64,000 nt of DNA from Escherichia coli (GTDB lineage: Bacteria; Pseudomonadota; Gammaproteobacteria; Enterobacterales; Enterobacteriaceae): the NCBI RefSeq assembly GCF_050920415.1, contig NZ_CP169309.1, one strand, 5' to 3'. Positions within the stretch are counted from its first letter, which is position 1; each line of letters opens with the position of its first letter. This document shows, one piece after another, positions 35,813 through 50,383 of the stretch. The translations under genes were made by a program, and so were the position numbers. The notes below the pieces were generated by a model. That model worked only from the letters and a program-made list of their open reading frames with translations. It had not been told where the DNA came from and searched no databases.

Positions 35813-36571
35813 ATGCATTACCAGCCAAAACAAGATTTACTCAATGATCGCATTATCCTGGTGACGGGAGCCAGCAATGGTATTGGTCGTGAAGCCGCGA
35901 TGACGTATGCACGCTATGGTGCGACAGTGATTCTGTTGGGCCGTAATGAAGAAAAATTACGTCAGGTAGCCAGCCACATAAACGAAGAAACTGGGCGTCA
36001 GCCACAGTGGTTTATTCTCGATTTGCTGACCTGCACGTCCGAAGATTGCCAACAACTGGCACAGCGCATTGCCGTTAATTATCCGCGTCTGGATGGTGTT
36101 TTGCATAATGCCGGATTGCTCGGCGATGTTTGCCCAATGAGCGAGCAAAACCCGCAGGTCTGGCAGGACGTCATGCAGGTCAACGTTAATGCCACCTTTA
36201 TGCTCACCCAGGCACTGCTTCCTTTATTACTCAAATCGGACGCCGGTTCACTGGTCTTTACTTCATCAAGCGTTGGACGTCAGGGGCGTGCAAACTGGGG
36301 CGCTTATGCAGCGTCGAAATTTGCCACCGAAGGGATGATGCAGGTACTGGCCGATGAATATCAGCAGCGCCTGCGCGTCAACTGCATTAACCCAGGTGGT
36401 ACGCGCACCGCAATGCGCGCAAGCGCCTTCCCGACCGAAGATCCACAGAAACTTAAAACACCCGCTGATATCATGCCGCTCTACCTCTGGCTGATGGGCG
36501 ATGACAGCCGCCGTAAAACCGGCATGACCTTTGACGCCCAACCGGGCCGTAAACCAGGAATATCCCAATGA
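35813..36571 (+). CDS. yciK: short-chain dehydrogenase/reductase
   Basis: 252 aa; TGASNGIGRE Rossmann motif. Confidence 0.9.
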   Translation: MHYQPKQDLLNDRIILVTGASNGIGREAAMTYARYGATVILLGRNEEKLRQVASHINEETGRQPQWFILDLLTCTSEDCQQLAQRIAVNYPRLDGVLHNAGLLGDVCPMSEQNPQVWQDVMQVNVNATFMLTQALLPLLLKSDAGSLVFTSSSVGRQGRANWGAYAASKFATEGMMQVLADEYQQRLRVNCINPGGTRTAMRASAFPTEDPQKLKTPADIMPLYLWLMGDDSRRKTGMTFDAQPGRKPGISQ

Positions 36572-37158
36572 GTGATGAACGCTACCAACAGCGTCAGCAG
36601 CGTGTAAAAGATAAAGTGGATGCCCGTGTGGCCCAGGCCCAGGATGAACGCGGTATTATCATCGTCTTTACCGGCAATGGAAAAGGCAAAACCACCGCGG
36701 CATTTGGTACAGCAGCTCGCGCAGTTGGTCACGGAAAAAAAGTGGGCGTCGTGCAGTTTATTAAAGGCACCTGGCCTAATGGCGAACGAAAACTGCTGGA
36801 GCCACACGGCGTTGAGTTTCAAGTGATGGCAACGGGCTTTACCTGGGATACGCAAAACCGCGAATCTGATACCGCAGCCTGCCGTGAAGTCTGGCAACAT
36901 GCCAAACGAATGCTGGCAGATGCTTCACTGGATATGGTTTTGCTCGATGAGCTGACGTATATGGTGGCGTATGACTATTTACCACTGGATGAAGTGGTGC
37001 AGGCGTTAAATGAACGTCCACATCAACAGACGGTGATTATCACGGGTCGTGGTTGTCATCGGGATATTCTTGAACTGGCGGATACGGTAAGTGAATTACG
37101 CCCTGTCAAACATGCGTTTGATGCCGGTGTTAAGGCGCAAATCGGGATTGATTATTAA
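36568..37158 (+). CDS. btuR: cob(I)yrinic acid a,c-diamide / corrinoid adenosyltransferase
   Basis: 196 aa; P-loop GNGKGKTTAAFG; start overlaps the yciK stop by 4 nt. Confidence 0.93.
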   Translation: MSDERYQQRQQRVKDKVDARVAQAQDERGIIIVFTGNGKGKTTAAFGTAARAVGHGKKVGVVQFIKGTWPNGERKLLEPHGVEFQVMATGFTWDTQNRESDTAACREVWQHAKRMLADASLDMVLLDELTYMVAYDYLPLDEVVQALNERPHQQTVIITGRGCHRDILELADTVSELRPVKHAFDAGVKAQIGIDY

Positions 37159-37163
37159 GGGAA

Positions 37164-37197
37164 AGCACCTCAAAAGATCGCCTCTTGAGGTGCTTTA
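37164..37197. terminator. hairpin downstream of btuR (also downstream of the 102-aa minus-strand ORF)
   Basis: agcacctcaa...ttgaggtgct inverted repeat followed by tttaat. Confidence 0.55.
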
Positions 37198-37210
37198 ATC
37201 ATAATTATAT

Positions 37211-37519
37211 TCAAGCGGCAATAGCAAAACTCAGAATCCGTTTAATCTCATTCAAATGTCCCGGATATGCTTCATGATTCTCAGCGTCAACATCTTCAAT
37301 AAATAATATCAGTTCAGTAATTAACGCATTGGCATCTTCATAACTGATTCCGCTTAACTCTGGCGAAGTTTCAGTACCGTAGTTAATCGTCAGATTGTTC
37401 ATCACCGTGAGGATAAGGATAAAATATTTATGACAAACCTTGCAAGTGGTTTTGTTGCCCAGAGTATTATACAGCATATCAAGTAATGCCAGTATTCTAC
37501 GGTTTTGTACATCGTTCAT
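37211..37519 (-). CDS. hypothetical 102-aa protein, second gene of an AT-rich two-gene module; function unknown
   Basis: Uninterrupted ORF in ~35% GC DNA; strong SD (taGGAGGggc) 7 nt upstream of ATG; starts 12 nt after the upstream lipoprotein stop; single CxxC (CKVCH), acidic C-terminal half. Confidence 0.6.
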   Translation of the reverse strand: MNDVQNRRILALLDMLYNTLGNKTTCKVCHKYFILILTVMNNLTINYGTETSPELSGISYEDANALITELILFIEDVDAENHEAYPGHLNEIKRILSFAIAA

Positions 37520-37531
37520 AAAAAGCCCCTC

Positions 37532-38533
37532 CTATAACATTATTCCGCTGGCAATAAGTAATTTCGCCAGCCCCTCAGACGCCTTTAACCCACTAATGAC
37601 CTGTGCGCGTAATATTTCATTTAATCTGTTTTGTTCAGCTGCCGTGCGTGTTTTATTAGTGTATAAACCTTTTAGATAATCACCCTTATCTATAAAGGCA
37701 TTTAAAGCTTCAATCGCGGGCATTGCAGCAGCCGATGCCTGTAGTCTGGTTTCATTCACATTGATTACTGAACTTAGAAACTCCTTCCTGTTTTTCAGAG
37801 TGTTAAACTCTGTATTCTTAGAGTTTTTAGATACCGCATTATAATAAAGCATATTATTATGTACATTCGCAAAGGTATAATTTTCAATCTTATCGCCTTT
37901 TGTATAAATATCATTACGCAAAACAGTCATGTTTTTTATAAGTCTTACCCAATTTTTATCCGCCGTTTTACCTATTTTCCCAGCATTGACCTTTATTATA
38001 TATAACTCGTTGAAATAACTTACTAAATCTTTAACTGCCGCTGCCGATTCAGCTAAATCTTTGCTATGTGAAACATCAAGTAGTGTTTGCGCGTTGTTTG
38101 CGTGATCCAGAGCCTGTTTAAGTAATGTCACTTGCTGACTTTCTGTAGTTTTTATGTCTTCAGTCAAGAGCTCTACATAAGCACTCATGCTATTAATGAC
38201 TTCCATTGAAGCCAGTAGTTTCTCTTTTTCGAATGGGACTAATTGTACTTTATCTGTTTTTTCTTCAGGGGGCCTGCATAATTTTCCACCCTGACCATCG
38301 TTCGCAACATCAATGGTATAATCAGGTCGCAATGCACAATCCGGATTAGTCGCATAAAAATTAACAAGGAAGTTTTCACGAGAAGCATAGTATTGTTTAA
38401 AGAAACTTGCATTCGCCGCAACCGCCTTGTTACCCGCAGTAATAACAGTTTCAGCTTGCTCATTTTTCAATGCTTCAGTTGCACAACCTGAAAGCATTAA
38501 CAGCGATAGAAATAATCCACTATATCTAATCAT
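37532..38533 (-). CDS. hypothetical 333-aa lipoprotein (predicted outer-membrane-targeted), first gene of the AT-rich module
   Basis: N-terminus MIRYSGLFLSLLMLSGC-ATEA (signal peptide plus lipobox LSGC, Ala at +2); SD agaGGTGG upstream; 1 kb ORF in AT-rich DNA where stop codons are frequent. Confidence 0.7.
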   Translation of the reverse strand: MIRYSGLFLSLLMLSGCATEALKNEQAETVITAGNKAVAANASFFKQYYASRENFLVNFYATNPDCALRPDYTIDVANDGQGGKLCRPPEEKTDKVQLVPFEKEKLLASMEVINSMSAYVELLTEDIKTTESQQVTLLKQALDHANNAQTLLDVSHSKDLAESAAAVKDLVSYFNELYIIKVNAGKIGKTADKNWVRLIKNMTVLRNDIYTKGDKIENYTFANVHNNMLYYNAVSKNSKNTEFNTLKNRKEFLSSVINVNETRLQASAAAMPAIEALNAFIDKGDYLKGLYTNKTRTAAEQNRLNEILRAQVISGLKASEGLAKLLIASGIML

Positions 38534-38654
38534 AACCCACCTCTTGACGTTGAGTTTATCTCAGATAATTAAATAGTAATGTGGCTATTCCCTGGCATTA
38601 TTCATAAGCAAGTATGAAATTAAATTAAAATACTGCGACTATTTATCATGCTTC

Positions 38655-38690
38655 AAATGAAGAAAAGGCCCCGCAGGGCCTTTATTTAAT
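38655..38690 (-). terminator. rho-independent terminator of rluB
   Basis: aaaggccc-cgca-gggccttt hairpin 20 nt after the rluB stop, followed on the minus strand by ttttcttcattt. Confidence 0.7.
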
Positions 38691-38702
38691 ACTTAACTTA
38701 AA

Positions 38703-39578
38703 TTAACCGTTATTATTACGTCCACCAGAACGACGACCGCCGCTGACCTGGCTGTGACGTTTCACCGCACGACGAATTTGATTCGCCTTCATACGACGAC
38801 GGTCTTTTTCTACAGCAACTTTAGAGCTGGTTTCTGGCGGTAGTTCCACCAGCTCACGCAGATAGTTAGTCTGGGCAAGATCCAGCTCAGTCCAGCCACC
38901 GCGTGGCAGACCTTTCGGCAGTGGGATATCACCGTAACGCACGCGGATCAGACGGCTCACCTGCACACCAACAGCTTCCCAAAGACGACGAACTTCACGG
39001 TTACGGCCTTCGGTCAGAGTAACATTGTACCACTGGTTGATCCCTTCGCCGCCGCTGAACTTAATGGTTTTAAAGGCTGCCGGACCATCTTCCAGCTGCA
39101 CGCCACGACTCAAATCACGCAGTTTCGCGTCGTCAACCTGACCAAATACACGCACGGCATATTCACGTTCAACTTCACGGCTTGGATGCATTAGACGGTT
39201 TGCCAGTTCACCGTCGGTGGTAAACAGCAGGAGACCGCAGGTGTTAACGTCCAGACGACCTACGGCAATCCAGCGTGCACCGCGCAGTTTTGGCAGACGG
39301 TCAAATACCGTTGGACGCCCTTCCGGATCGTTACGGGTACACAACTCACCTTCCGGTTTGTAATAGGCCAGAACGCGACAAATTTGTTCAGCGGACTCAC
39401 GTACCGAAATCAGGTGACCATCGATACGGATTTTCAATCCAGGGGTAATTTCAACACGATCGCCGAGTTTAGCAATTTTGCCATCAACACTCACACGACC
39501 GGCTTCAATAATAGATTCGATTTCACGGCGAGAACCGTGGCCGGCACGCGCCAGCACTTTCTGTAGCTTTTCGCTCAT
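38703..39578 (-). CDS. rluB: 23S rRNA pseudouridine(2605) synthase
   Basis: 291 aa; S4 domain at the N-terminus, pseudouridine synthase core, basic RG-rich tail. Confidence 0.93.
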
Positions 39579-39678
39579 AGAGCTTCCTTTTGGTGTCGCC
39601 TTCCCAGGCGTCGAACAGGAGAATCAATGGCGCAGTAGAGCGCCATTTTAAGGCCGCGTAGTATACAGAGTTAATCAC

Positions 39679-40299
39679 TTATAAAAAAGGCTTCACATCA
39701 CCTACACCTTCACGCAATACGACTGGCGTATCATCGGTGAGATCAATAACCGTTGTCGGTTTCTGCCCGAGATAGCCGCCGTGAATAATCAAATCCACCT
39801 GTTTTTCCAGACGGTCTTTAATTTCTTCCGGGTCAGACTCGGTAAATTCGCTGCCAGGTAGCATCAGTGATGTGGAAAGCATCGGTTCGCCCAATGCTTC
39901 AAGCAACGCCTGCGCAATCGGGTTAGAAGGCACACGCATACCGATGGTTTTGCGTTTTTCCTGCAACAGACGGCGTGGCACTTCCTTCGTCCCCTTCAGG
40001 ATGAAAGTGTAGTTACCCGGCGTATTGTTTTTCATCAAACGAAACGCAACGTTATCGACAAATGAATAGGTCGAGAGTTCAGAAAGATCGCGACACATCA
40101 GGGTAAAGTTGTGACCGTCCGGCAGCTGGCGAATACGACAAATACGCTCCATGGCGTTTTTATCTTCAATTTTACAGCCGAGCGCATAGCCGGAATCAGT
40201 TGGATAAACAATCACCCCGCCTTTACGCACGATCTCCACCGCCTGGTTGATCAGACGTTGCTGCGGGTTATCAGGATGAATATAAAAAAACTGGCTCAT
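39679..40299 (-). CDS. yciO: YrdC/Sua5-family dsRNA-binding protein
   Basis: ORF trimmed to MSQFFYIHPDNPQQRLINQAVEIVRKGGVIVYPTDSGYALGC..., 206 aa. Confidence 0.88.
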   Translation of the reverse strand: MSQFFYIHPDNPQQRLINQAVEIVRKGGVIVYPTDSGYALGCKIEDKNAMERICRIRQLPDGHNFTLMCRDLSELSTYSFVDNVAFRLMKNNTPGNYTFILKGTKEVPRRLLQEKRKTIGMRVPSNPIAQALLEALGEPMLSTSLMLPGSEFTESDPEEIKDRLEKQVDLIIHGGYLGQKPTTVIDLTDDTPVVLREGVGDVKPFL

Positions 40300-41177
40300 A
40301 ATTCCCTCTCTGTGGTGTTCTGCGGCTGTTCCCATAGCTGCCAGACGCCTTCAACGCCTGCGGGCAGCCAGAGTTTACGACCCAGTTCGATCCACGGGCA
40401 TGGCTGATGAAAATCAGATCCTTGTGATGCCCATAAATGGTGCTGGCGGGCAAGCGTCGCCAGTTGGGTGCGTTCATTGGGCGATTGCTGGCACTGCGCG
40501 ACTTCCATCGCGTCGCCGTGGTGTTCGGCAAAATGCGCAACCAATCTTTTCAGCCATTTAGCACTAAGATTGTACCGCCCAGGATGAGCAAGCACTGCCT
40601 TACCGCCAGAATGATGAATGACATCAATAGCTTGTTCTATTGTACACCACTGTGGCGGAACGTATCCGGTTTTCCCGCGTGCCAGATATTTTTTAAAGAC
40701 ATCCGCTATTGAACTGGCTTTGCCACATTCAACCAAGAAACGCGCAAAATGACCGCGCGTCACCGCACCGCCCTGCGCCAGTCGTTGCGCGCCTTCCAGC
40801 GCCCCAGGTATTTGCGCTTTTTCAAGTCTTTCGGCAATTAACTTCGCCCGCTGATTGCGCCGTTCTGTCTGCTGCGCGAGGAACTCACTCATTGCCGAAT
40901 GTGCAATATCAATATTCAGCCCGACAATATGAATTTCATGATTTTCCCAGACGGTGGATATTTCCACGCCAGGAATAAGATTCAGTGCCAGTCCTGAACG
41001 TGAAATTTCTTCTCTTGCTGGCGCGATTGCCGCTGTGGTGTCATGGTCGGTGATCGCCAGGGTGCCGACGCGCATCTCGACTGCACGGTGCACCAATGCT
41101 TCTGGCGTCAGGCAGCCATCGGAAGCTGTGGTATGGCTGTGCAGGTCATAAATCACTGCGTAATTCGTGTCGCTCAA
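40296..41177 (-). CDS. trpH: PHP-domain 5'-3' exoribonuclease / phosphoesterase (TrpH / YciV / RNase AM)
   Basis: PHP motif HSHTTASDG; proposed TTG start (plus-strand caa at 41175-41177) gives 293 aa; an alternative ATG lies upstream. Confidence 0.85.
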   Translation of the reverse strand: MSDTNYAVIYDLHSHTTASDGCLTPEALVHRAVEMRVGTLAITDHDTTAAIAPAREEISRSGLALNLIPGVEISTVWENHEIHIVGLNIDIAHSAMSEFLAQQTERRNQRAKLIAERLEKAQIPGALEGAQRLAQGGAVTRGHFARFLVECGKASSIADVFKKYLARGKTGYVPPQWCTIEQAIDVIHHSGGKAVLAHPGRYNLSAKWLKRLVAHFAEHHGDAMEVAQCQQSPNERTQLATLARQHHLWASQGSDFHQPCPWIELGRKLWLPAGVEGVWQLWEQPQNTTEREL

Positions 41178-41251
41178 GGCGCACTCCCGTTTTGGATAAT
41201 GTTTTTGCGCCGACATCATAACGGTTCTGGCAAATATTCTGAAATGAGCTG

Positions 41252-41290
41252 TTGACAATTAATCACCGGACTAGTTAACTAGTACGCAAG
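41252..41290 (+). promoter_or_regulatory. trp promoter (-35 TTGACA 41252-41257, -10 TTAACT 41275-41280) with overlapping TrpR operator
   Basis: Direct reading: ttgaca-17 bp-ttaact; palindromic actagttaactagt operator core. Confidence 0.85.
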
Positions 41291-41313
41291 TTCACGTAAA
41301 AAGGGTATCGACA

Positions 41314-41358
41314 ATGAAAGCGATTTTCGTACTGAAAGGTTGGTGGCGCACTTCCTGA
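41314..41358 (+). CDS. trpL: trp operon leader peptide
   Basis: [14 protein letters not shown] with tandem Trp codons. Confidence 0.9.
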
Positions 41359-41400
41359 AACGGGCAGTGTATTCACCATGCGTAAAGCAATCAGATACCC

Positions 41401-41428
41401 AGCCCGCCTAATGAGCGGGCTTTTTTTT
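41401..41428 (+). terminator. trp attenuator (3:4 terminator hairpin)
   Basis: agcccgcctaatgagcgggc followed by tttttttt, 22 nt before the trpE ATG. Confidence 0.9.
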
Positions 41429-41449
41429 GAACAAAATTAGAGAATAACA

Positions 41450-43012
41450 ATGCAAACACAAAAACCGACTCTCGAACTGTTAACCTGCGAAGGTGCTTAT
41501 CGCGATAATCCGACCGCGCTTTTTCATCAGTTGTGTGGGGATCGTCCGGCAACGCTGCTGCTTGAATCCGCAGATATCGACAGCAAAGATGATTTAAAAA
41601 GCCTGCTGCTGGTGGACAGTGCGCTGCGCATTACAGCATTAGGTGACACTGTCACTATTCAGGCACTTTCCGGCAATGGCGAAGCTCTGCTGGCATTACT
41701 GGATAACGCCCTGCCTGCGGGTGTGGAAAATGAACAATCACCAAACTGCCGCGTGCTGCGCTTCCCTCCTGTCAGTCCATTGCTGGATGAAGACGCCCGC
41801 TTATGCTCTCTTTCGGTTTTTGACGCTTTTCGCTTATTGCAGAATCTGTTGAATGTACCGAAGGAAGAACGAGAAGCAATGTTCTTCGGCGGCCTGTTCT
41901 CTTATGACCTTGTGGCGGGGTTTGAAGATTTACCGCAATTGTCAGCGGAAAATAACTGCCCTGATTTCTGTTTTTATCTCGCTGAAACGCTGATGGTTAT
42001 CGATCATCAGAAAAAAAGTACCCGTATTCAGGCCAGTCTTTTTGCTCCCAATGAAGAAGAAAAACAACGTCTCACTGCTCGCCTGAACGAACTTCGCCAG
42101 CAACTGACCGAAACCGCGCCGCCGCTGCCGGTAGTTTCCGTGCCGCATATGCATTGTGAATGTAATCAGAGCGATGAAGAGTTCGGTGGCGTAGTGCGTT
42201 CGTTGCAAAAAGCGATTCGCGCCGGAGAAATTTTCCAGGTCGTACCATCTCGCCGTTTCTCACTGCCCTGCCCGTCATCGCTGGCGGCCTATTACGTGCT
42301 GAAAAAGAGTAATCCCAGCCCGTACATGTTTTTTATGCAGGATAATGATTTCACCCTGTTCGGCGCGTCGCCGGAAAGTTCGCTCAAGTATGACGCCTCC
42401 AGCCGCCAGATTGAGATCTACCCGATTGCCGGAACACGCCCACGAGGACGTCGCGCCGATGGTTCACTGGACAGAGACCTGGACAGCCGCATTGAACTGG
42501 AGATGCGTACCGACCATAAAGAGCTTTCTGAACATCTGATGCTGGTGGATCTCGCCCGTAATGACCTTGCGCGCATTTGCACTCCTGGCAGCCGCTACGT
42601 TGCCGACCTGACCAAAGTTGACCGTTACTCTTACGTGATGCATCTCGTCTCCCGCGTTGTCGGTGAGCTGCGCCACGATCTTGACGCCCTGCACGCTTAC
42701 CGCGCCTGTATGAATATGGGCACGTTAAGCGGTGCCCCGAAAGTGCGCGCCATGCAGTTAATTGCCGAAGCGGAAGGTCGTCGACGCGGCAGCTACGGCG
42801 GTGCGGTAGGTTATTTCACCGCACATGGCGATCTCGACACCTGCATTGTCATCCGTTCGGCGCTGGTGGAAAACGGTATCGCCACCGTGCAAGCCGGTGC
42901 TGGCGTAGTCCTTGATTCTGTTCCGCAGTCGGAAGCCGACGAAACCCGTAATAAAGCCCGCGCTGTACTGCGCGCTATCGCCACCGCGCATCATGCACAG
43001 GAGACTTTCTGA
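41450..43012 (+). CDS. trpE: anthranilate synthase component I
   Basis: 520-aa [57 protein letters not shown]... Confidence 0.96.
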
Positions 43013-44607
43013 TGGCTGACATTCTGCTGCTCGATAATATCGACTCTTTTACTTATAACCTGGCAGATCAGTTGCGCAGCAATGGGCATAACGTGGTGAT
43101 TTACCGCAACCATATTCCGGCGCAAACCTTAATTGAACGTCTTGCGACCATGAGCAATCCGGTGCTGATGCTTTCTCCTGGCCCCGGAGTGCCGAGTGAA
43201 GCGGGTTGTATGCCGGAACTCCTCACCCGTTTGCGTGGCAAGCTGCCAATTATTGGCATTTGCCTCGGACATCAGGCGATTGTCGAAGCTTACGGGGGCT
43301 ATGTCGGTCAGGCGGGAGAAATTCTTCACGGTAAAGCGTCGAGCATTGAACATGACGGTCAGGCGATGTTTGCCGGATTAACAAACCCATTGCCGGTAGC
43401 GCGTTATCACTCGTTGGTTGGCAGTAACATTCCGGCAGGTTTAACCATCAATGCCCATTTTAACGGCATGGTGATGGCGGTGCGTCATGATGCGGATCGC
43501 GTTTGTGGATTCCAGTTCCATCCGGAATCCATTCTCACCACCCAGGGCGCTCGCCTGCTGGAACAAACGCTGGCCTGGGCGCAACAGAAGCTGGAGCCGA
43601 CCAACACACTGCAACCAATTCTGGAAAAACTGTATCAGGCGCAGACGCTTAGCCAACAAGAAAGCCACCAGCTGTTTTCAGCGGTGGTGCGTGGCGAGCT
43701 GAAACCGGAACAACTGGCGGCTGCATTGGTCAGCATGAAAATTCGCGGCGAGCACCCGAACGAAATCGCCGGGGCAGCAACTGCCCTTCTGGAAAATGCT
43801 GCGCCGTTCCCACGCCCTGATTATCTGTTTGCCGATATCGTCGGCACCGGCGGTGACGGCAGCAACAGTATCAATATTTCTACCGCCAGTGCGTTTGTCG
43901 CCGCGGCCTGTGGGCTGAAAGTGGCGAAACACGGTAACCGCAGCGTCTCCAGTAAATCCGGCTCGTCGGATCTGCTGGCGGCATTCGGTATTAATCTTGA
44001 TATGAACGCCGATAAATCGCGCCAGGCGCTGGATGAGTTAGGCGTCTGTTTCCTCTTTGCGCCGAAATATCACACCGGATTTCGCCATGCGATGCCGGTT
44101 CGCCAGCAACTGAAAACCCGCACCCTGTTCAATGTGCTGGGGCCATTGATTAACCCGGCGCATCCTCCGCTGGCGTTAATTGGTGTTTATAGTCCGGAAC
44201 TGGTGCTGCCGATTGCCGAAACCTTGCGCGTGCTGGGGTATCAACGCGCGGCGGTGGTGCACAGCGGCGGGATGGATGAAGTTTCATTACACGCGCCGAC
44301 AATCGTTGCCGAACTGCATGACGGCGAAATTAAGAGCTATCAGTTGACCGCTGAAGATTTTGGCCTGACTCCCTACCATCAGGAGCAACTGGCAGGCGGA
44401 ACACCGGAAGAAAACCGTGACATTTTAACACGCTTGTTACAAGGTAAAGGCGACGCCGCCCATGAAGCAGCTGTCGCGGCGAATGTCGCCATGTTAATGC
44501 GCCTGCATGGCCAGGAAGATCTGCAAACCAATGCGCAAACCGTTCTTGAGGTACTGCGCAGTGGTTCCGCTTACGACAGAGTCACCGCACTGGCGGCACG
44601 AGGGTAA
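43012..44607 (+). CDS. trpD: bifunctional anthranilate synthase component II / anthranilate phosphoribosyltransferase
   Basis: 531 aa; start overlaps the trpE stop (tgATGg). Confidence 0.96.
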
Positions 44608-45969
44608 ATGATGCAAACCGTTTTAGCGAAAATCGTCGCAGACAAGGCGATTTGGGTAGAAGCCCGCAAACAGCAGCAACCGCTGGCCAGTTTTCAGAAT
44701 GAGGTTCAGCCGAGCACGCGACATTTTTATGATGCACTGCAAGGCGCACGCACGGCGTTTATTCTGGAATGCAAAAAAGCGTCGCCGTCAAAAGGCGTGA
44801 TCCGTGATGATTTCGATCCGGCACGCATTGCCGCCATTTATAAACATTACGCTTCGGCAATTTCGGTGCTGACTGATGAGAAATATTTTCAGGGGAGCTT
44901 TGATTTCCTCCCCATCGTCAGCCAAATCGCCCCGCAGCCGATTTTGTGTAAAGACTTTATTATCGACCCTTACCAGATCTATCTGGCGCGCTATTACCAG
45001 GCCGATGCCTGTTTATTAATGCTGTCGGTGCTGGACGACGATCAGTATCGCCAGCTCGCTGCTGTAGCCCACAGTCTGGAGATGGGCGTGCTGACCGAAG
45101 TCAGTAATGAAGAGGAGCTGGAGCGCGCCATTGCATTGGGAGCAAAAGTCGTTGGTATCAACAACCGTGATCTGCGTGATTTGTCGATTGATCTTAACCG
45201 TACCCGCGAGCTTGCGCCGAAACTGGGGCACAACGTGACGGTGATCAGCGAATCCGGCATTAATACTTACGGCCAGGTGCGTGAGTTAAGCCACTTCGCT
45301 AACGGCTTTTTAATTGGTTCGGCGTTGATGGCCCATGACGATTTGAACGCCGCCGTGCGCCGGGTGTTGCTGGGTGAGAATAAAGTATGTGGTCTGACGC
45401 GTGGGGAAGATGCTAAAGCAGCCTATGACGCGGGTGCGATTTACGGTGGATTGATATTTGTTACAACGTCACCGCGTTGCGTCAGCATTGAAGAGGCGCA
45501 GGAAGTGATGGCTGCGGCACCGTTGCAATACGTTGGCGTGTTCCGCAATCACGATATTGCCGATGTGGTGGACAAAGCTAAGGTGTTATCGCTGGCGGCA
45601 GTGCAACTGCATGGTAATGAAGATCAGCTGTATATCGATACGCTGCGTGAGGCTCTGCCAGCAAACGTCGCCATCTGGAAGGCTTTAAGTGTCGGTGAAA
45701 CTCTTCCCGCGCGCGATTTTCAGCACATCGATAAATATGTATTCGACAATGGTCAGGGCGGGAGCGGACAACGTTTCGACTGGTCACTGTTAAACGGTCA
45801 ATCTCTTGGCAACGTTCTGCTGGCGGGTGGCTTAGGCGCAGATAACTGCGTGGAAGCGGCACAAACCGGCTGCGCCGGGCTTGATTTTAATTCTGCTGTA
45901 GAGTCGCAACCGGGCATCAAAGACGCACGTCTTTTGGCCTCGGTTTTCCAGACGCTGCGCGCATATTAA
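44608..45969 (+). CDS. trpC: bifunctional indole-3-glycerol-phosphate synthase / phosphoribosylanthranilate isomerase
   Basis: 453-aa ORF immediately after the trpD stop. Confidence 0.95.
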
Positions 45970-45980
45970 GGAAAGGAACA

Positions 45981-47174
45981 ATGACAACATTACTTAACCC
46001 GTATTTTGGTGAGTTTGGCGGCATGTACGTGCCACAAATCCTGATGCCTGCTCTGCGCCAGCTGGAAGAAGCTTTTGTCAGCGCGCAAAAAGATCCTGAA
46101 TTTCAGGCCCAGTTCAACGACCTGCTGAAAAACTATGCCGGGCGCCCAACCGCGCTGACCAAATGTCAGAACATTACAGCCGGGACGAACACCACACTGT
46201 ATCTGAAGCGTGAAGATTTACTGCACGGCGGCGCGCATAAAACTAACCAGGTTCTGGGCCAGGCTTTGCTGGCGAAGCGGATGGGTAAAACCGAAATCAT
46301 TGCCGAAACCGGTGCAGGTCAGCATGGCGTGGCTTCTGCGCTTGCAAGCGCCCTGCTCGGCCTGAAATGCCGTATTTATATGGGTGCCAAAGACGTTGAA
46401 CGCCAGTCGCCTAACGTTTTTCGTATGCGTTTGATGGGTGCGGAAGTGATCCCGGTGCATAGCGGTTCCGCGACGCTGAAAGATGCCTGTAATGAGGCGC
46501 TACGCGACTGGTCCGGCAGTTATGAAACCGCGCACTATATGCTGGGCACTGCAGCTGGCCCGCATCCTTACCCGACCATTGTGCGTGAGTTTCAGCGGAT
46601 GATTGGCGAAGAAACGAAAGCGCAGATTCTGGAAAGAGAAGGTCGTCTGCCGGATGCCGTTATTGCTTGTGTTGGCGGCGGTTCGAATGCCATCGGCATG
46701 TTTGCTGATTTCATCAACGAAACCGACGTCGGGCTGATCGGCGTGGAGCCTGGTGGTCACGGTATCGAAACTGGCGAGCACGGCGCACCGTTAAAACATG
46801 GTCGCGTGGGCATCTATTTCGGTATGAAAGCGCCAATGATGCAAACCGAAGACGGGCAGATTGAAGAATCTTACTCGATTTCTGCCGGACTGGATTTCCC
46901 GTCAGTCGGCCCGCAACACGCTTATCTCAACAGCATTGGACGCGCTGATTATGTGTCAATCACCGATGATGAAGCTCTGGAGGCCTTCAAAACGCTGTGC
47001 CTGCACGAAGGGATTATCCCGGCGCTGGAATCCTCACATGCGCTGGCCCATGCGCTGAAAATGATGCGCGAAAACCCGGAAAAAGAGCAGCTACTGGTGG
47101 TTAACCTTTCCGGTCGCGGCGATAAAGACATCTTCACCGTTCACGATATTTTGAAAGCACGAGGGGAAATCTGA
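45981..47174 (+). CDS. trpB: tryptophan synthase beta chain
   Basis: 397-aa [28 protein letters not shown]... Confidence 0.96.
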
Positions 47175-47980
47175 TGGAACGCTACGAATCTCTGTTTGCC
47201 CAACTGAAGGAGCGCAAAGAAGGCGCATTCGTTCCTTTCGTCACCCTCGGTGATCCGGGCATTGAGCAGTCGCTGAAAATTATCGATACGTTAATTGAAG
47301 CCGGTGCTGACGCGCTGGAGTTAGGTATCCCCTTCTCCGACCCACTGGCAGATGGCCCGACGATTCAAAACGCCACACTGCGTGCCTTTGCGGCAGGTGT
47401 GACCCCGGCGCACTGCTTTGAGATGCTGGCACTCATTCGCCAGAAGTACCCGACCATTCCGATCGGCCTTTTGATGTATGCCAACCTGGTGTTTAACAAA
47501 GGCATTGATGAGTTTTATGCCGAGTGCGAGAAAGTCGGCGTCGATTCGGTGCTGGTTGCCGATGTGCCCGTGGAAGAGTCTGCGCCCTTCCGCCAGGCCG
47601 CGTTGCGCCATAACGTCGCACCTATCTTCATCTGCCCGCCGAATGCTGATGATGATTTACTGCGCCAGATTGCCTCTTACGGTCGTGGTTACACCTATTT
47701 ATTGTCGCGTGCGGGTGTGACCGGAGCTGAAAACCGTGCCGCGTTACCTCTCAATCATCTGGTTGCGAAGCTGAAAGAGTACAACGCTGCGCCTCCATTG
47801 CAAGGATTTGGTATTTCCGCCCCGGATCAGGTAAAAGCAGCGATTGATGCAGGAGCGGCGGGCGCGATTTCTGGTTCGGCAATTGTTAAAATCATCGAGC
47901 AACATATTAATGAGCCAGAGAAAATGCTGGCGGTACTGAAAGCTTTTGTACAACCGATGAAAGCAGCGACGCGCAGTTAA
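47174..47980 (+). CDS. trpA: tryptophan synthase alpha chain
   Basis: 268 aa; start overlaps the trpB stop (tgATGg). Confidence 0.96.
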
Positions 47981-47987
47981 TCCCACA

Positions 47988-48014
47988 GCCGCCAGTTCCG
48001 CTGGCGGCATTTTA
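47988..48014 (+). terminator. trp operon terminator (trp t)
   Basis: gccgccag-ttccg-ctggcggc hairpin followed by atttt. Confidence 0.8.
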
Positions 48015-48360
48015 ACTATCTTTAATGAAGCAGGAAAAATCCTAAATTCATTTATTATTTATCTTTTTACCGTTTCGCTTACCCCTGACGTACGTTAACT
48101 TACGTCATTTTTCCGCCCAAAAGTAATATAATCAAACAAATTAATCCCGCAACAAAACACTACTAAAATCAATAATTTTCTCTAACCCACTTATTTCTTG
48201 GGTATTTATGAATATATCGAAACTCTTTTTCAAAATATATTTTTCACATTCCTTCTCACTTTGCTCAATTTGACTAATTCTCATTACCGACTAATTTTAA
48301 TGAGTGTCGACACACAACACTCATATTAATGAAACAATGCAACGCAACGGGAGAAATAAC

Positions 48361-48540
48361 ATGGCCGAACATCGTGGTGGTTCAGGAAATTTCGCCGAAG
48401 ATCGTGAGAAGGCATCCGACGCAGGCCGTAAAGGCGGTCAACACAGCGGCGGTAATTTTAAAAATGATCCGCAACGCGCATCCGAAGCGGGTAAAAAAGG
48501 CGGTCAGCACAGCGGTGGAAATAAATCAGGAAAATCCTGA
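48361..48540 (+). CDS. yciG: small glycine-rich stress protein YciG
   Basis: ORF trimmed to MAEHRGGSGNFAEDREKASDAGRKGGQHSGGNF..., 59 aa with KGG repeats. Confidence 0.85.
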   Translation: MAEHRGGSGNFAEDREKASDAGRKGGQHSGGNFKNDPQRASEAGKKGGQHSGGNKSGKS

Positions 48541-48632
48541 TCCGCCGTTAATTATTAATATCAGCTGACGTTGATAAAGATAATTGCCTCTGCGGGCCGT
48601 ATGGCTCGCAGTGATTTCACTGGAGTAAAAAT

Positions 48633-49133
48633 ATGAATATGAAGTCCATTGAAGATGTATTTATTCACCTGCTTTCAGACACCTACAGTGCAGAAAAACA
48701 ATTAACACGGGCACTGGCAAAACTCGCCAGAGCAACATCAAACGAAAAATTAAGTCAGGCTTTTCATGCGCACCTCGAGGAAACTCATGGACAGATTGAA
48801 CGTATTGATCAAGTTGTGGAATCTGAACCGAATCTGAAAATTAAGCGCATGAAATGTGTGGCAATGGAAGGTCTCATTGAAGAAGCTAATGAGGTCATCG
48901 AAAGCACCGAGAAAAACGAAGTGCGTGATGCCGCACTGATTGCCGCGGCACAGAAAGTCGAGCACTATGAGATCGCCAGTTACGGGACCTTAGCGACGCT
49001 GGCTGAACAATTAGGTTATCGTAAAGCAGCGAAGCTTCTGAAAGAAACCCTGGAAGAAGAAAAGGCCACCGACATCAAATTGACTGATCTGGCCCTTAAT
49101 AACGTAAATAAGAAAGCAGAAAATAAAGCCTGA
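48633..49133 (+). CDS. yciF: DUF892 ferritin-like stress protein YciF
   Basis: 166-aa ORF. Confidence 0.88.
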   Translation: MNMKSIEDVFIHLLSDTYSAEKQLTRALAKLARATSNEKLSQAFHAHLEETHGQIERIDQVVESEPNLKIKRMKCVAMEGLIEEANEVIESTEKNEVRDAALIAAAQKVEHYEIASYGTLATLAEQLGYRKAAKLLKETLEEEKATDIKLTDLALNNVNKKAENKA

Positions 49134-49178
49134 AATATGAACTTTAACTTTTAGTCATTTTATAAAGAGGACATTTTC

Positions 49179-49685
49179 ATGAATCGTATTGAACATTATC
49201 ATGACTGGTTACGTGACGCCCACGCAATGGAAAAGCAAGCAGAATCTATGCTTGAATCCATGGCCAGCCGCATAGATAATTATCCTGAGCTACGCGCTCG
49301 TATTGAACAACATGTTAGTGAAACCAAAAACCAGATTGTACAACTGGAAACTATTCTTGATCGTAATGACATTTCACGCTCAGTCATTAAAGATTCTATG
49401 AGTAAAATGGCTGCACTTGGGCAGTCAATCGGTGGTATATTCCCTTCTGATGAAATAGTCAAAGGCTCTATTAGCGGATATGTCTTCGAGCAATTTGAAA
49501 TCGCCTGTTACACCTCACTATTAGCAGCAGCAAAAAATGCCGGTGATACAGCTTCAATTCCAACCATCGAAGCGATTTTAAATGAGGAAAAAGAAATGGC
49601 CGAGTGGCTGATTCAGCATATTCCGCAAACAACTGAGAAATTTTTAATACGCTCTGAAACTGATGGCGTAGAAGCGAAGAAATAA
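49179..49685 (+). CDS. yciE: DUF892 ferritin-like stress protein YciE
   Basis: 168-aa ORF, paralogous to yciF. Confidence 0.88.
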   Translation: MNRIEHYHDWLRDAHAMEKQAESMLESMASRIDNYPELRARIEQHVSETKNQIVQLETILDRNDISRSVIKDSMSKMAALGQSIGGIFPSDEIVKGSISGYVFEQFEIACYTSLLAAAKNAGDTASIPTIEAILNEEKEMAEWLIQHIPQTTEKFLIRSETDGVEAKK

Positions 49686-49708
49686 TACCCTTTATACCAT
49701 GTCCTTAT

Positions 49709-49737
49709 TGACCCCGTATATTACGGGGTCGTTTTTA
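49709..49737. terminator. bidirectional terminator between convergent yciE and ompW
   Basis: accccgta-tat-tacggggt hairpin followed by cgttttta. Confidence 0.7.
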
Positions 49738-49744
49738 TGCGGAA

Positions 49745-50383
49745 TTAAAAACGATATCCTGCTGAGAACATAAACACCCACGGATCGAGGCGTACGCTAT
49801 CGTGTTGCTGTGCACCGCCCAGTTTATAATTGGCGGTGGTGTCAATATCCATGTACCACACTGACATATTCACCAACCAGTCACGGTTAATCAGATAATC
49901 AACCCCCACCTGCCCGGCAGCTCCCCAGGAATCTTTCAGACTGAGATCGGAAAGCCCCGCCTCTTTGCCATGATCGTTAAATCCATTATCAAAGAAGGTG
50001 GTGTAGTTAATACCTGCCCCAACGTAAGGACGGAATTTGCTGCTGGCATCACCAAAATACCACTGCGCCATCAGTGTTGGCGGCAGATGATGAACGGTTG
50101 CAATATCACCGGTCGCCCGGGTACCGATTTTATGGCGGAACGGCGTAGCTGCCAGTAATTCCACACCAATATTGTCGGTCGCCATATAAGTAAACGTCAG
50201 GCCCAGTTGAGTGTTATTGGTTACGCTAAATCCACCCAGACTTCCTAATGTACCACCAGCACCTTCTGTTGGACGTACAGTTGCAGAACCTGCACGCATA
50301 AAAAATTCGCCTGCTTCATGCGCAAAGGCACTGCCAGAGAGAAGAGTTGTTACTGCCAAAGCCGCCACTGTTAACTTTTTCAT
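49745..50383 (-). CDS. ompW: outer membrane protein W
   Basis: ORF trimmed to MKKLTVAALAVTTLLSGSAFA..., 212 aa; C-terminal GYRF. Confidence 0.93.
   Translation of the reverse strand: MKKLTVAALAVTTLLSGSAFAHEAGEFFMRAGSATVRPTEGAGGTLGSLGGFSVTNNTQLGLTFTYMATDNIGVELLAATPFRHKIGTRATGDIATVHHLPPTLMAQWYFGDASSKFRPYVGAGINYTTFFDNGFNDHGKEAGLSDLSLKDSWGAAGQVGVDYLINRDWLVNMSVWYMDIDTTANYKLGGAQQHDSVRLDPWVFMFSAGYRF

Follow-up and report, generated by a model that had tools for sequence, protein, structure and literature searches.

The trp regulatory region

The stretch of DNA analysed (hereafter the window, 64,000 nucleotides from Escherichia coli) is 100% identical over 24 kb to record NZ_CP169399.1 of E. coli MFDS1022581 (assembly GCF_050920435.1), a strain whose source was animal-source food in South Korea; positions in that record are obtained by adding 2,778,424 to those of the window. 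The RefSeq annotation of NZ_CP169399.1 and the list of open reading frames place a promoter/operator directly upstream of trpL and trpEDCBA (Table 1). It is a TrpR-regulated trp promoter/operator, in which TTGACA and TTAACT hexamers separated by 17 bp form a σ70 promoter and the operator overlaps the −10 element. The attenuator was recognised by a leader peptide with tandem Trp codons and by a match to the Rfam Trp_leader covariance model RF00513 (93.1 bits; gathering score, 41). Positions 41270–41321 are identical to K-12 on alignment, and on this basis the transcription start was located, the trpL AUG lying at +27 in the textbook numbering of K-12. A consensus promoter scan omits the trp promoter because its rule demands an A at the second position of the hexamer, which TTAACT fails, a limit of the tool.

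Each TrpR monomer contacts one half-site, which is GNACT in the consensus quoted in PMC9413887 from Jaseja, Jeeves and Hyde (2002). Read against this quoted consensus, the operator contains inverted half-sites, GGACT at 41268–41272 and GTACT on the bottom strand at 41281–41285, that flank ACTAGTTAACTAGT.

A second σ70-like site, TTCAGA-17-TATGAT, occupies 41243–41215 on the minus strand and is directed at the divergent rnm gene (trpH/yciV); by its sequence it is a possible rnm promoter, arranged back-to-back with the trp promoter.

Table 1. Positions in the window of the trp regulatory elements, trpE and the substitutions relative to E. coli K-12
Feature	Position	Strand	Remarks
−35 hexamer, TTGACA	41252–41257	+	Identical to K-12
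T>C at −22	41266	+	In the promoter spacer, immediately left of the 20-bp operator pseudo-palindrome
TrpR operator, 20-bp pseudo-palindrome CGGACTAGTTAACTAGTACG	41267–41286	+	Dyad between 41276 and 41277
A>G at −19	41269	+	N of the left half-site (G−20 N−19 A−18 C−17 T−16) under GNACT as quoted in the text
Operator core ACTAGTTAACTAGT, 14 bp	41270–41283	+	Identical to K-12
−10 hexamer, TTAACT	41275–41280	+	17-bp spacing from −35; identical to K-12
Transcription start (+1)	41288	+	Placed by identity to K-12
trpL leader peptide, 14 residues	41314–41358	+	Codon 3 (41320–41322) is GCG
A>G in trpL codon 3, GCA>GCG	41322	+	Synonymous
trp leader/attenuator RNA (RF00513)	41335–41428	+	Identical to K-12
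Terminator hairpin followed by T-run	41401–41421	+	Within the attenuator; identical to K-12
trpE, first structural gene of the operon	41450–43012	+	

Differences from E. coli K-12

Alignment to the K-12 reference, MG1655 (NC_000913.3), showed that, from −36 through the whole attenuator, the window differs at only three positions (41266, 41269 and 41322). The window shares with the K-12 trp promoter/operator the −35 element, the 17-bp spacer length, the −10 element, the ACTAGTTAACTAGT core and the right half-site, along with its place before trpL-trpEDCBA, the leader/attenuator and a conserved TrpR, but is unlike it in carrying C at −22 and G at −19, at the spacer/left edge of the operator, and GCG as codon 3 of trpL. 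The original prediction, which compared the window with a remembered K-12 promoter, had claimed two substitutions at the left edge of the operator and an intact −35, −10, operator core and attenuator. The alignment bears out both claims, the substitutions being T>C at 41266 and A>G at 41269, and shows that the remembered sequence was correct, as no exact match to K-12 was found. The 32-mer quoted in support is present once, but its start had been set one base too far to the right, and its real span is 41257–41288. Because the left half-site reads G(−20) G(−19) A C T, the change at −19 falls on the N of GNACT in the form in which that consensus is quoted. Together, C at −22 and G at −19 turn the palindrome TCGA into the palindrome CCGG.

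The prediction had also noted a silent change in trpL codon 3, and this was recovered at 41322, outside the interval that the prediction had marked. It is synonymous because the peptide encoded by the GCG-carrying trpL shares its accession, WP_001700591.1, with that of GCA strains. Upstream of the promoter, the window differs from K-12 by G>A at 41148, A>G at 41160 and C>T at 41192, and a T-run near position ~41201 is one T shorter.

Distribution of the alleles in E. coli

Allele counts were obtained with 91-bp queries, with at least 99% identity taken as an exact match, in the 5,421 complete genomes of E. coli in which the region is present. The −22C/−19A haplotype is present in 86 of these and the −22T/−19G haplotype, for which a synthetic query was used, in seven, while −22C/−19G is confined to a single genome, that of the window itself. 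The comparison with natural variants that had been proposed for this site thus finds both single alleles in E. coli and the double allele once. Among 103 metagenome contigs with a trp promoter, 101 carry T/A at the two positions and two carry C/A; −19G was found in none of the 103.

The E. coli −22C allele (86 complete genomes, for example FDAARGOS_497, ST648) shares C at −22 with the window, and both it and the trp promoter of E. whittamii are identical to the window from −36 to +26 except for A at −19. Its E. coli carriers have a flanking haplotype other than that of the window, with 41148G, 41192C, six Ts and GCA in trpL. The E. coli −19G allele, found in 19SZHZ886Rt, S163-2, TUM9754, EC9, EC10, DETEC-P61 and one more genome, shares its G with the window and has an otherwise identical promoter/operator, but with T at −22. 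These seven genomes represent at least two haplotype backgrounds, two K-12-like flanking haplotypes that differ at 41160. Within E. coli, the flanking haplotypes with −19G number at least three and those with −22C at least two, so that both changes are recurrent transitions.

Among the strains aligned, variation in the core promoter is confined to −28, −22 and −19. The first of these, equivalent to window position 41260, is a third variable spacer position, with T>C in O157:H7 TW14359 and in Escherichia sp. E1V33. Taken together, the three positions map the variation that is tolerated in nature, in agreement with the GNACT model as quoted above.

Comparison across species

One genome per species was scanned with TTGACA-N12-ACTAGTTAACTAGT, the spacer being left free, which yielded 82 stretches with 83 matches and 65 unique promoter sequences. 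Position −22 is nearly unconstrained across the 65 unique promoters, with 0.30 bits of information (T31 A21 G7 C6); E. whittamii, Citrobacter amalonaticus, Salmonella enterica subsp. arizonae and Enterobacter soli have C there. Conservation at −19 is moderate, 0.93 bits (A51 T7 C4 G3) as compared with 1.17 bits for the G at −20. G at −19 is native in Klebsiella grimontii, Raoultella terrigena and Enterobacter sp. 10-1, where it stands right before an identical core. The K. grimontii and R. terrigena operators share with the window the −35 element, −19G and the ACTAGTTAACTAGT core, but their upstream spacers are unlike that of the window (TTAATCTCTCGG and TTATTCCTCTGG) and have T at −22. The occurrence of −19G ahead of an identical core in Klebsiella and Raoultella shows it to be compatible with a native trp operator. 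By these alignments −19G is tolerated in working trp operators but A is preferred, a preference that shared ancestry or function may underlie.

The TrpR repressor

Recognition of the operator by TrpR occurs partly through water-mediated and shape readout (PMC4139847), so that bases flanking the half-sites can matter. The cognate trpR gene of the same genome is located at 4405805–4406131 of NZ_CP169399.1, on the minus strand. Residues 1–106 of its product, including the helix-turn-helix, are identical to K-12, while the C-terminus reads ...LLKDH in MFDS1022581 vs ...LLKSD in K-12; over 161 bp, the trpR promoter/operator shows no difference from K-12 (100% identity). Co-variation of the repressor with the operator was rejected, as only the C-terminal dipeptide of TrpR differs and both its DNA-binding region and the trpR operator are those of K-12.

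Lineage context and recombination

The closest relatives of the window (2017-02-2CC, N96, EC42405, WL297, 2013C-4282, 2020CK-00188 and R32_14_1F) share its flanks, with 41148A, 41192T, the shorter T-run and trpL GCG. At −22 and −19 they have the K-12 bases, and these two changes are therefore private to the window genome within the lineage. The trpL GCG codon was found in 14 genomes by exact match and in at least four more with an extra nearby SNP, all of the window's lineage (at least 18 in total). Both GCG at 41322 and T at 41192 also occur in the species representatives of E. albertii and E. whittamii. Since GCG is common to these two species, it is probably ancestral in Escherichia, a silent lineage marker that would reflect the ancestral state rather than a new mutation. 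From the same comparison, the window's lineage seems to keep the ancestral states at 41322 and 41192, and mainstream E. coli (GCA and C) seems to be derived.

WL297 and 2013C-4282 carry an A>C change inside trpL at the equivalent of 41337. The accession of their leader peptide, WP_071986690.1, is unlike that of the window, which makes this change a missense in the leader peptide.

A 47-kb alignment with four relatives contains 130 substitutions private to the window. These peak between ~36000 and 50200, from cobO through trpEDCBA to yciE, where 9–20 occur per 2 kb vs 0–3 elsewhere. The whole clade is a patchwork in the trp region, with 95–99% identity per kb and each relative differing in different patches. 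As judged from these alignments, the interval ~36000–50200 is a recombination mosaic, a hyper-divergent block. In 4,796 of the 5,429 E. coli records, identity to the window is just 90–95% across the 8.6 kb that span trpE to yciE. Searches for the source of the divergent trp block identified no donor lineage, the best match other than to itself being 97.7% over 8.6 kb. An introgressed promoter, derived from E. whittamii or another Escherichia species, was rejected, as the per-kb identity to E. whittamii and to E. sp. E1V33 (91–96%) is lower than that to ordinary E. coli. The trp regulatory region is far better conserved than the surrounding structural genes, as expected under purifying selection.

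Origin of the paired substitutions

The pair would most likely represent two recurrent transitions at tolerated positions. If the two alleles were independent, 5421 × 0.016 × 0.0015 = ~0.13 double carriers would be expected by chance; one was seen (Poisson P ~0.12), so that no special mechanism is required. An origin in one event, by multinucleotide mutation or by gene conversion of a very short tract from a CCGG donor outside the sampled genomes, is a reasonable but less likely alternative. It would account for the spacing of the changes, which lie 3 bp apart and, with 40596, are the only private changes in the ~1.9 kb between 39675 and 41563; a rough post hoc probability for two independent changes within 3 bp is ~0.01. 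It would also fit the symmetry of the change, as TCGA>CCGG at the trp promoter is the sole palindrome-to-palindrome private change in 47 kb, and the heavy recombination mosaic of the surrounding trp region across the clade. However, a donor with CACCGGACTAG was not found in the 5,421 E. coli genomes, the 103 metagenome contigs or the 82 species-representative stretches, both changes are transitions with independent occurrences elsewhere, and the expectation of 0.13 co-occurrences is not far from the one observed. Inspection of the vicinity by eye showed no template, inverted or direct, that exceeds a 6-mer in length. For a template switch from a nearby repeat, the only candidate seen by eye was the inverted 6-mer CCGGAC in trpE near 41546, which is no better than chance. 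A single event concerns the origin of the pair only and leaves its near-neutral functional reading unchanged.

That a consensus error in a single assembly, for instance at a palindrome methylated in this strain, accounts for either substitution or for both is very improbable. In favour of an error, no genome but the window's own has the double allele, the change is symmetric on both strands, which is a signature of methylation-linked basecalling error at a palindrome, and several prophage genes in the same assembly are annotated as 'frameshifted'. Against such an error, each substitution alone exists in independent assemblies, divergence in the surrounding 24 kb is coherent and patterned by codon, and neither of the two private indels in 47 kb lies in a homopolymer. 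A systematic methylation-linked artefact at TCGA is rejected by this paucity of private indels and by the finding that only one of the 153 TCGA sites shared with relatives is altered to CCGG; a one-off consensus error is unlikely.

The genes annotated as 'frameshifted' (portal, lysis protein, N-6-adenine methyltransferase and one hypothetical protein) belong to a lambdoid prophage that adjoins prfC at ~4.430–4.470 Mb of NZ_CP169399.1, outside the window. Their frameshifts may represent real decay or some assembly indel noise.

Functional interpretation

The region is a standard E. coli trp promoter-operator-attenuator that carries a rare pair of minor spacer alleles, most likely an ordinary near-neutral polymorphism. 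Both changes leave untouched the elements read by RNA polymerase (the −35, the −10 and the 17-bp spacing) as well as the bases read specifically by TrpR, namely the ACTAGTTAACTAGT core and the G, A, C and T of GNACT as quoted. With the read bases untouched and the DNA-binding region of TrpR unchanged, repression and attenuation should persist as in K-12: transcription would start from TTGACA-17-TTAACT, Trp-bound TrpR would repress it on the overlapping operator, and trpL would mediate attenuation, with at most a small quantitative shift in regulation relative to K-12. We infer this near-neutrality and unchanged regulation from sequence identity, allele frequencies, cross-species tolerance and an intact TrpR. 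The suggestion in the original prediction that the changes are probably neutral strain variation is upheld by the presence of each in other E. coli (86 genomes with −22C and seven with −19G) and in other species; it also fits their positions, −22 being outside the operator and of low information (0.30 bits) and −19 being the unspecified N of the quoted half-site. Against neutrality stands the A found at −19 in 51 of the 65 promoters, G being rare there; this conservation (0.93 bits), close to that of the G at −20 (1.17 bits), may express some functional preference for A. A slight change in TrpR affinity, which the prediction had also raised, or in promoter strength is possible, whether through −19 itself, through shape or water-mediated readout or through the composition of the spacer.

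It is very unlikely that the double substitution is a functional cis-regulatory allele that retunes basal expression of the trp operon in this strain. Such an allele could alter TrpR occupancy, for instance where extra dimers bind the left flank in tandem or cooperatively, or it could change promoter strength through a spacer richer in G+C. The moderate conservation of A at −19 across species (0.93 bits), the indirect readout used by TrpR (PMC4139847) and the clustered, symmetric nature of the changes are in its favour, and the trp structural genes of the lineage are unusually divergent, so that their regulation could have co-adapted. However, the K-12 operator is retained in the closest relatives, which share these divergent trp genes, and the allele is therefore not tied to the trp genes of the lineage. 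Both positions fall outside the specifically read bases as given by the quoted GNACT consensus, −19G is native to Klebsiella and Raoultella operators with an identical core, and the DNA-binding part of TrpR is unchanged. Among 5,421 genomes the double allele occurs once, and nothing points to its spread. The tac promoter, which has a G at the equivalent spacer position, is strong, and this too counts against a functional allele. It is highly improbable that TCGA>CCGG is a selected cis-regulatory change, acting by extra TrpR dimer occupancy or spacer-dependent strength, or that CCGG comes under the influence of a strain-specific DNA methyltransferase; a selected change would imply a different set-point for tryptophan biosynthesis in this strain.

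The trp promoter-operator is among the best-characterised regulatory regions in biology, and a rare allele at its least constrained positions matters little. The pair has modest worth as a catalogue entry of natural variation, and the −22C, −19G and double alleles could provide ready natural variants for quantifying the effects of flanking bases on TrpR binding.

Gene order upstream of the trp region

The gene yciQ is absent from the window, where 66 bp (39613–39678) between rluB (38703–39578) and yciO (39679–40335), both on the minus strand, take the place of ~2.1 kb found between these genes in E. coli SMS-3-5, which include the DUF2207 gene yciQ. The rluB-yciO order without yciQ is also found in the four closest relatives.
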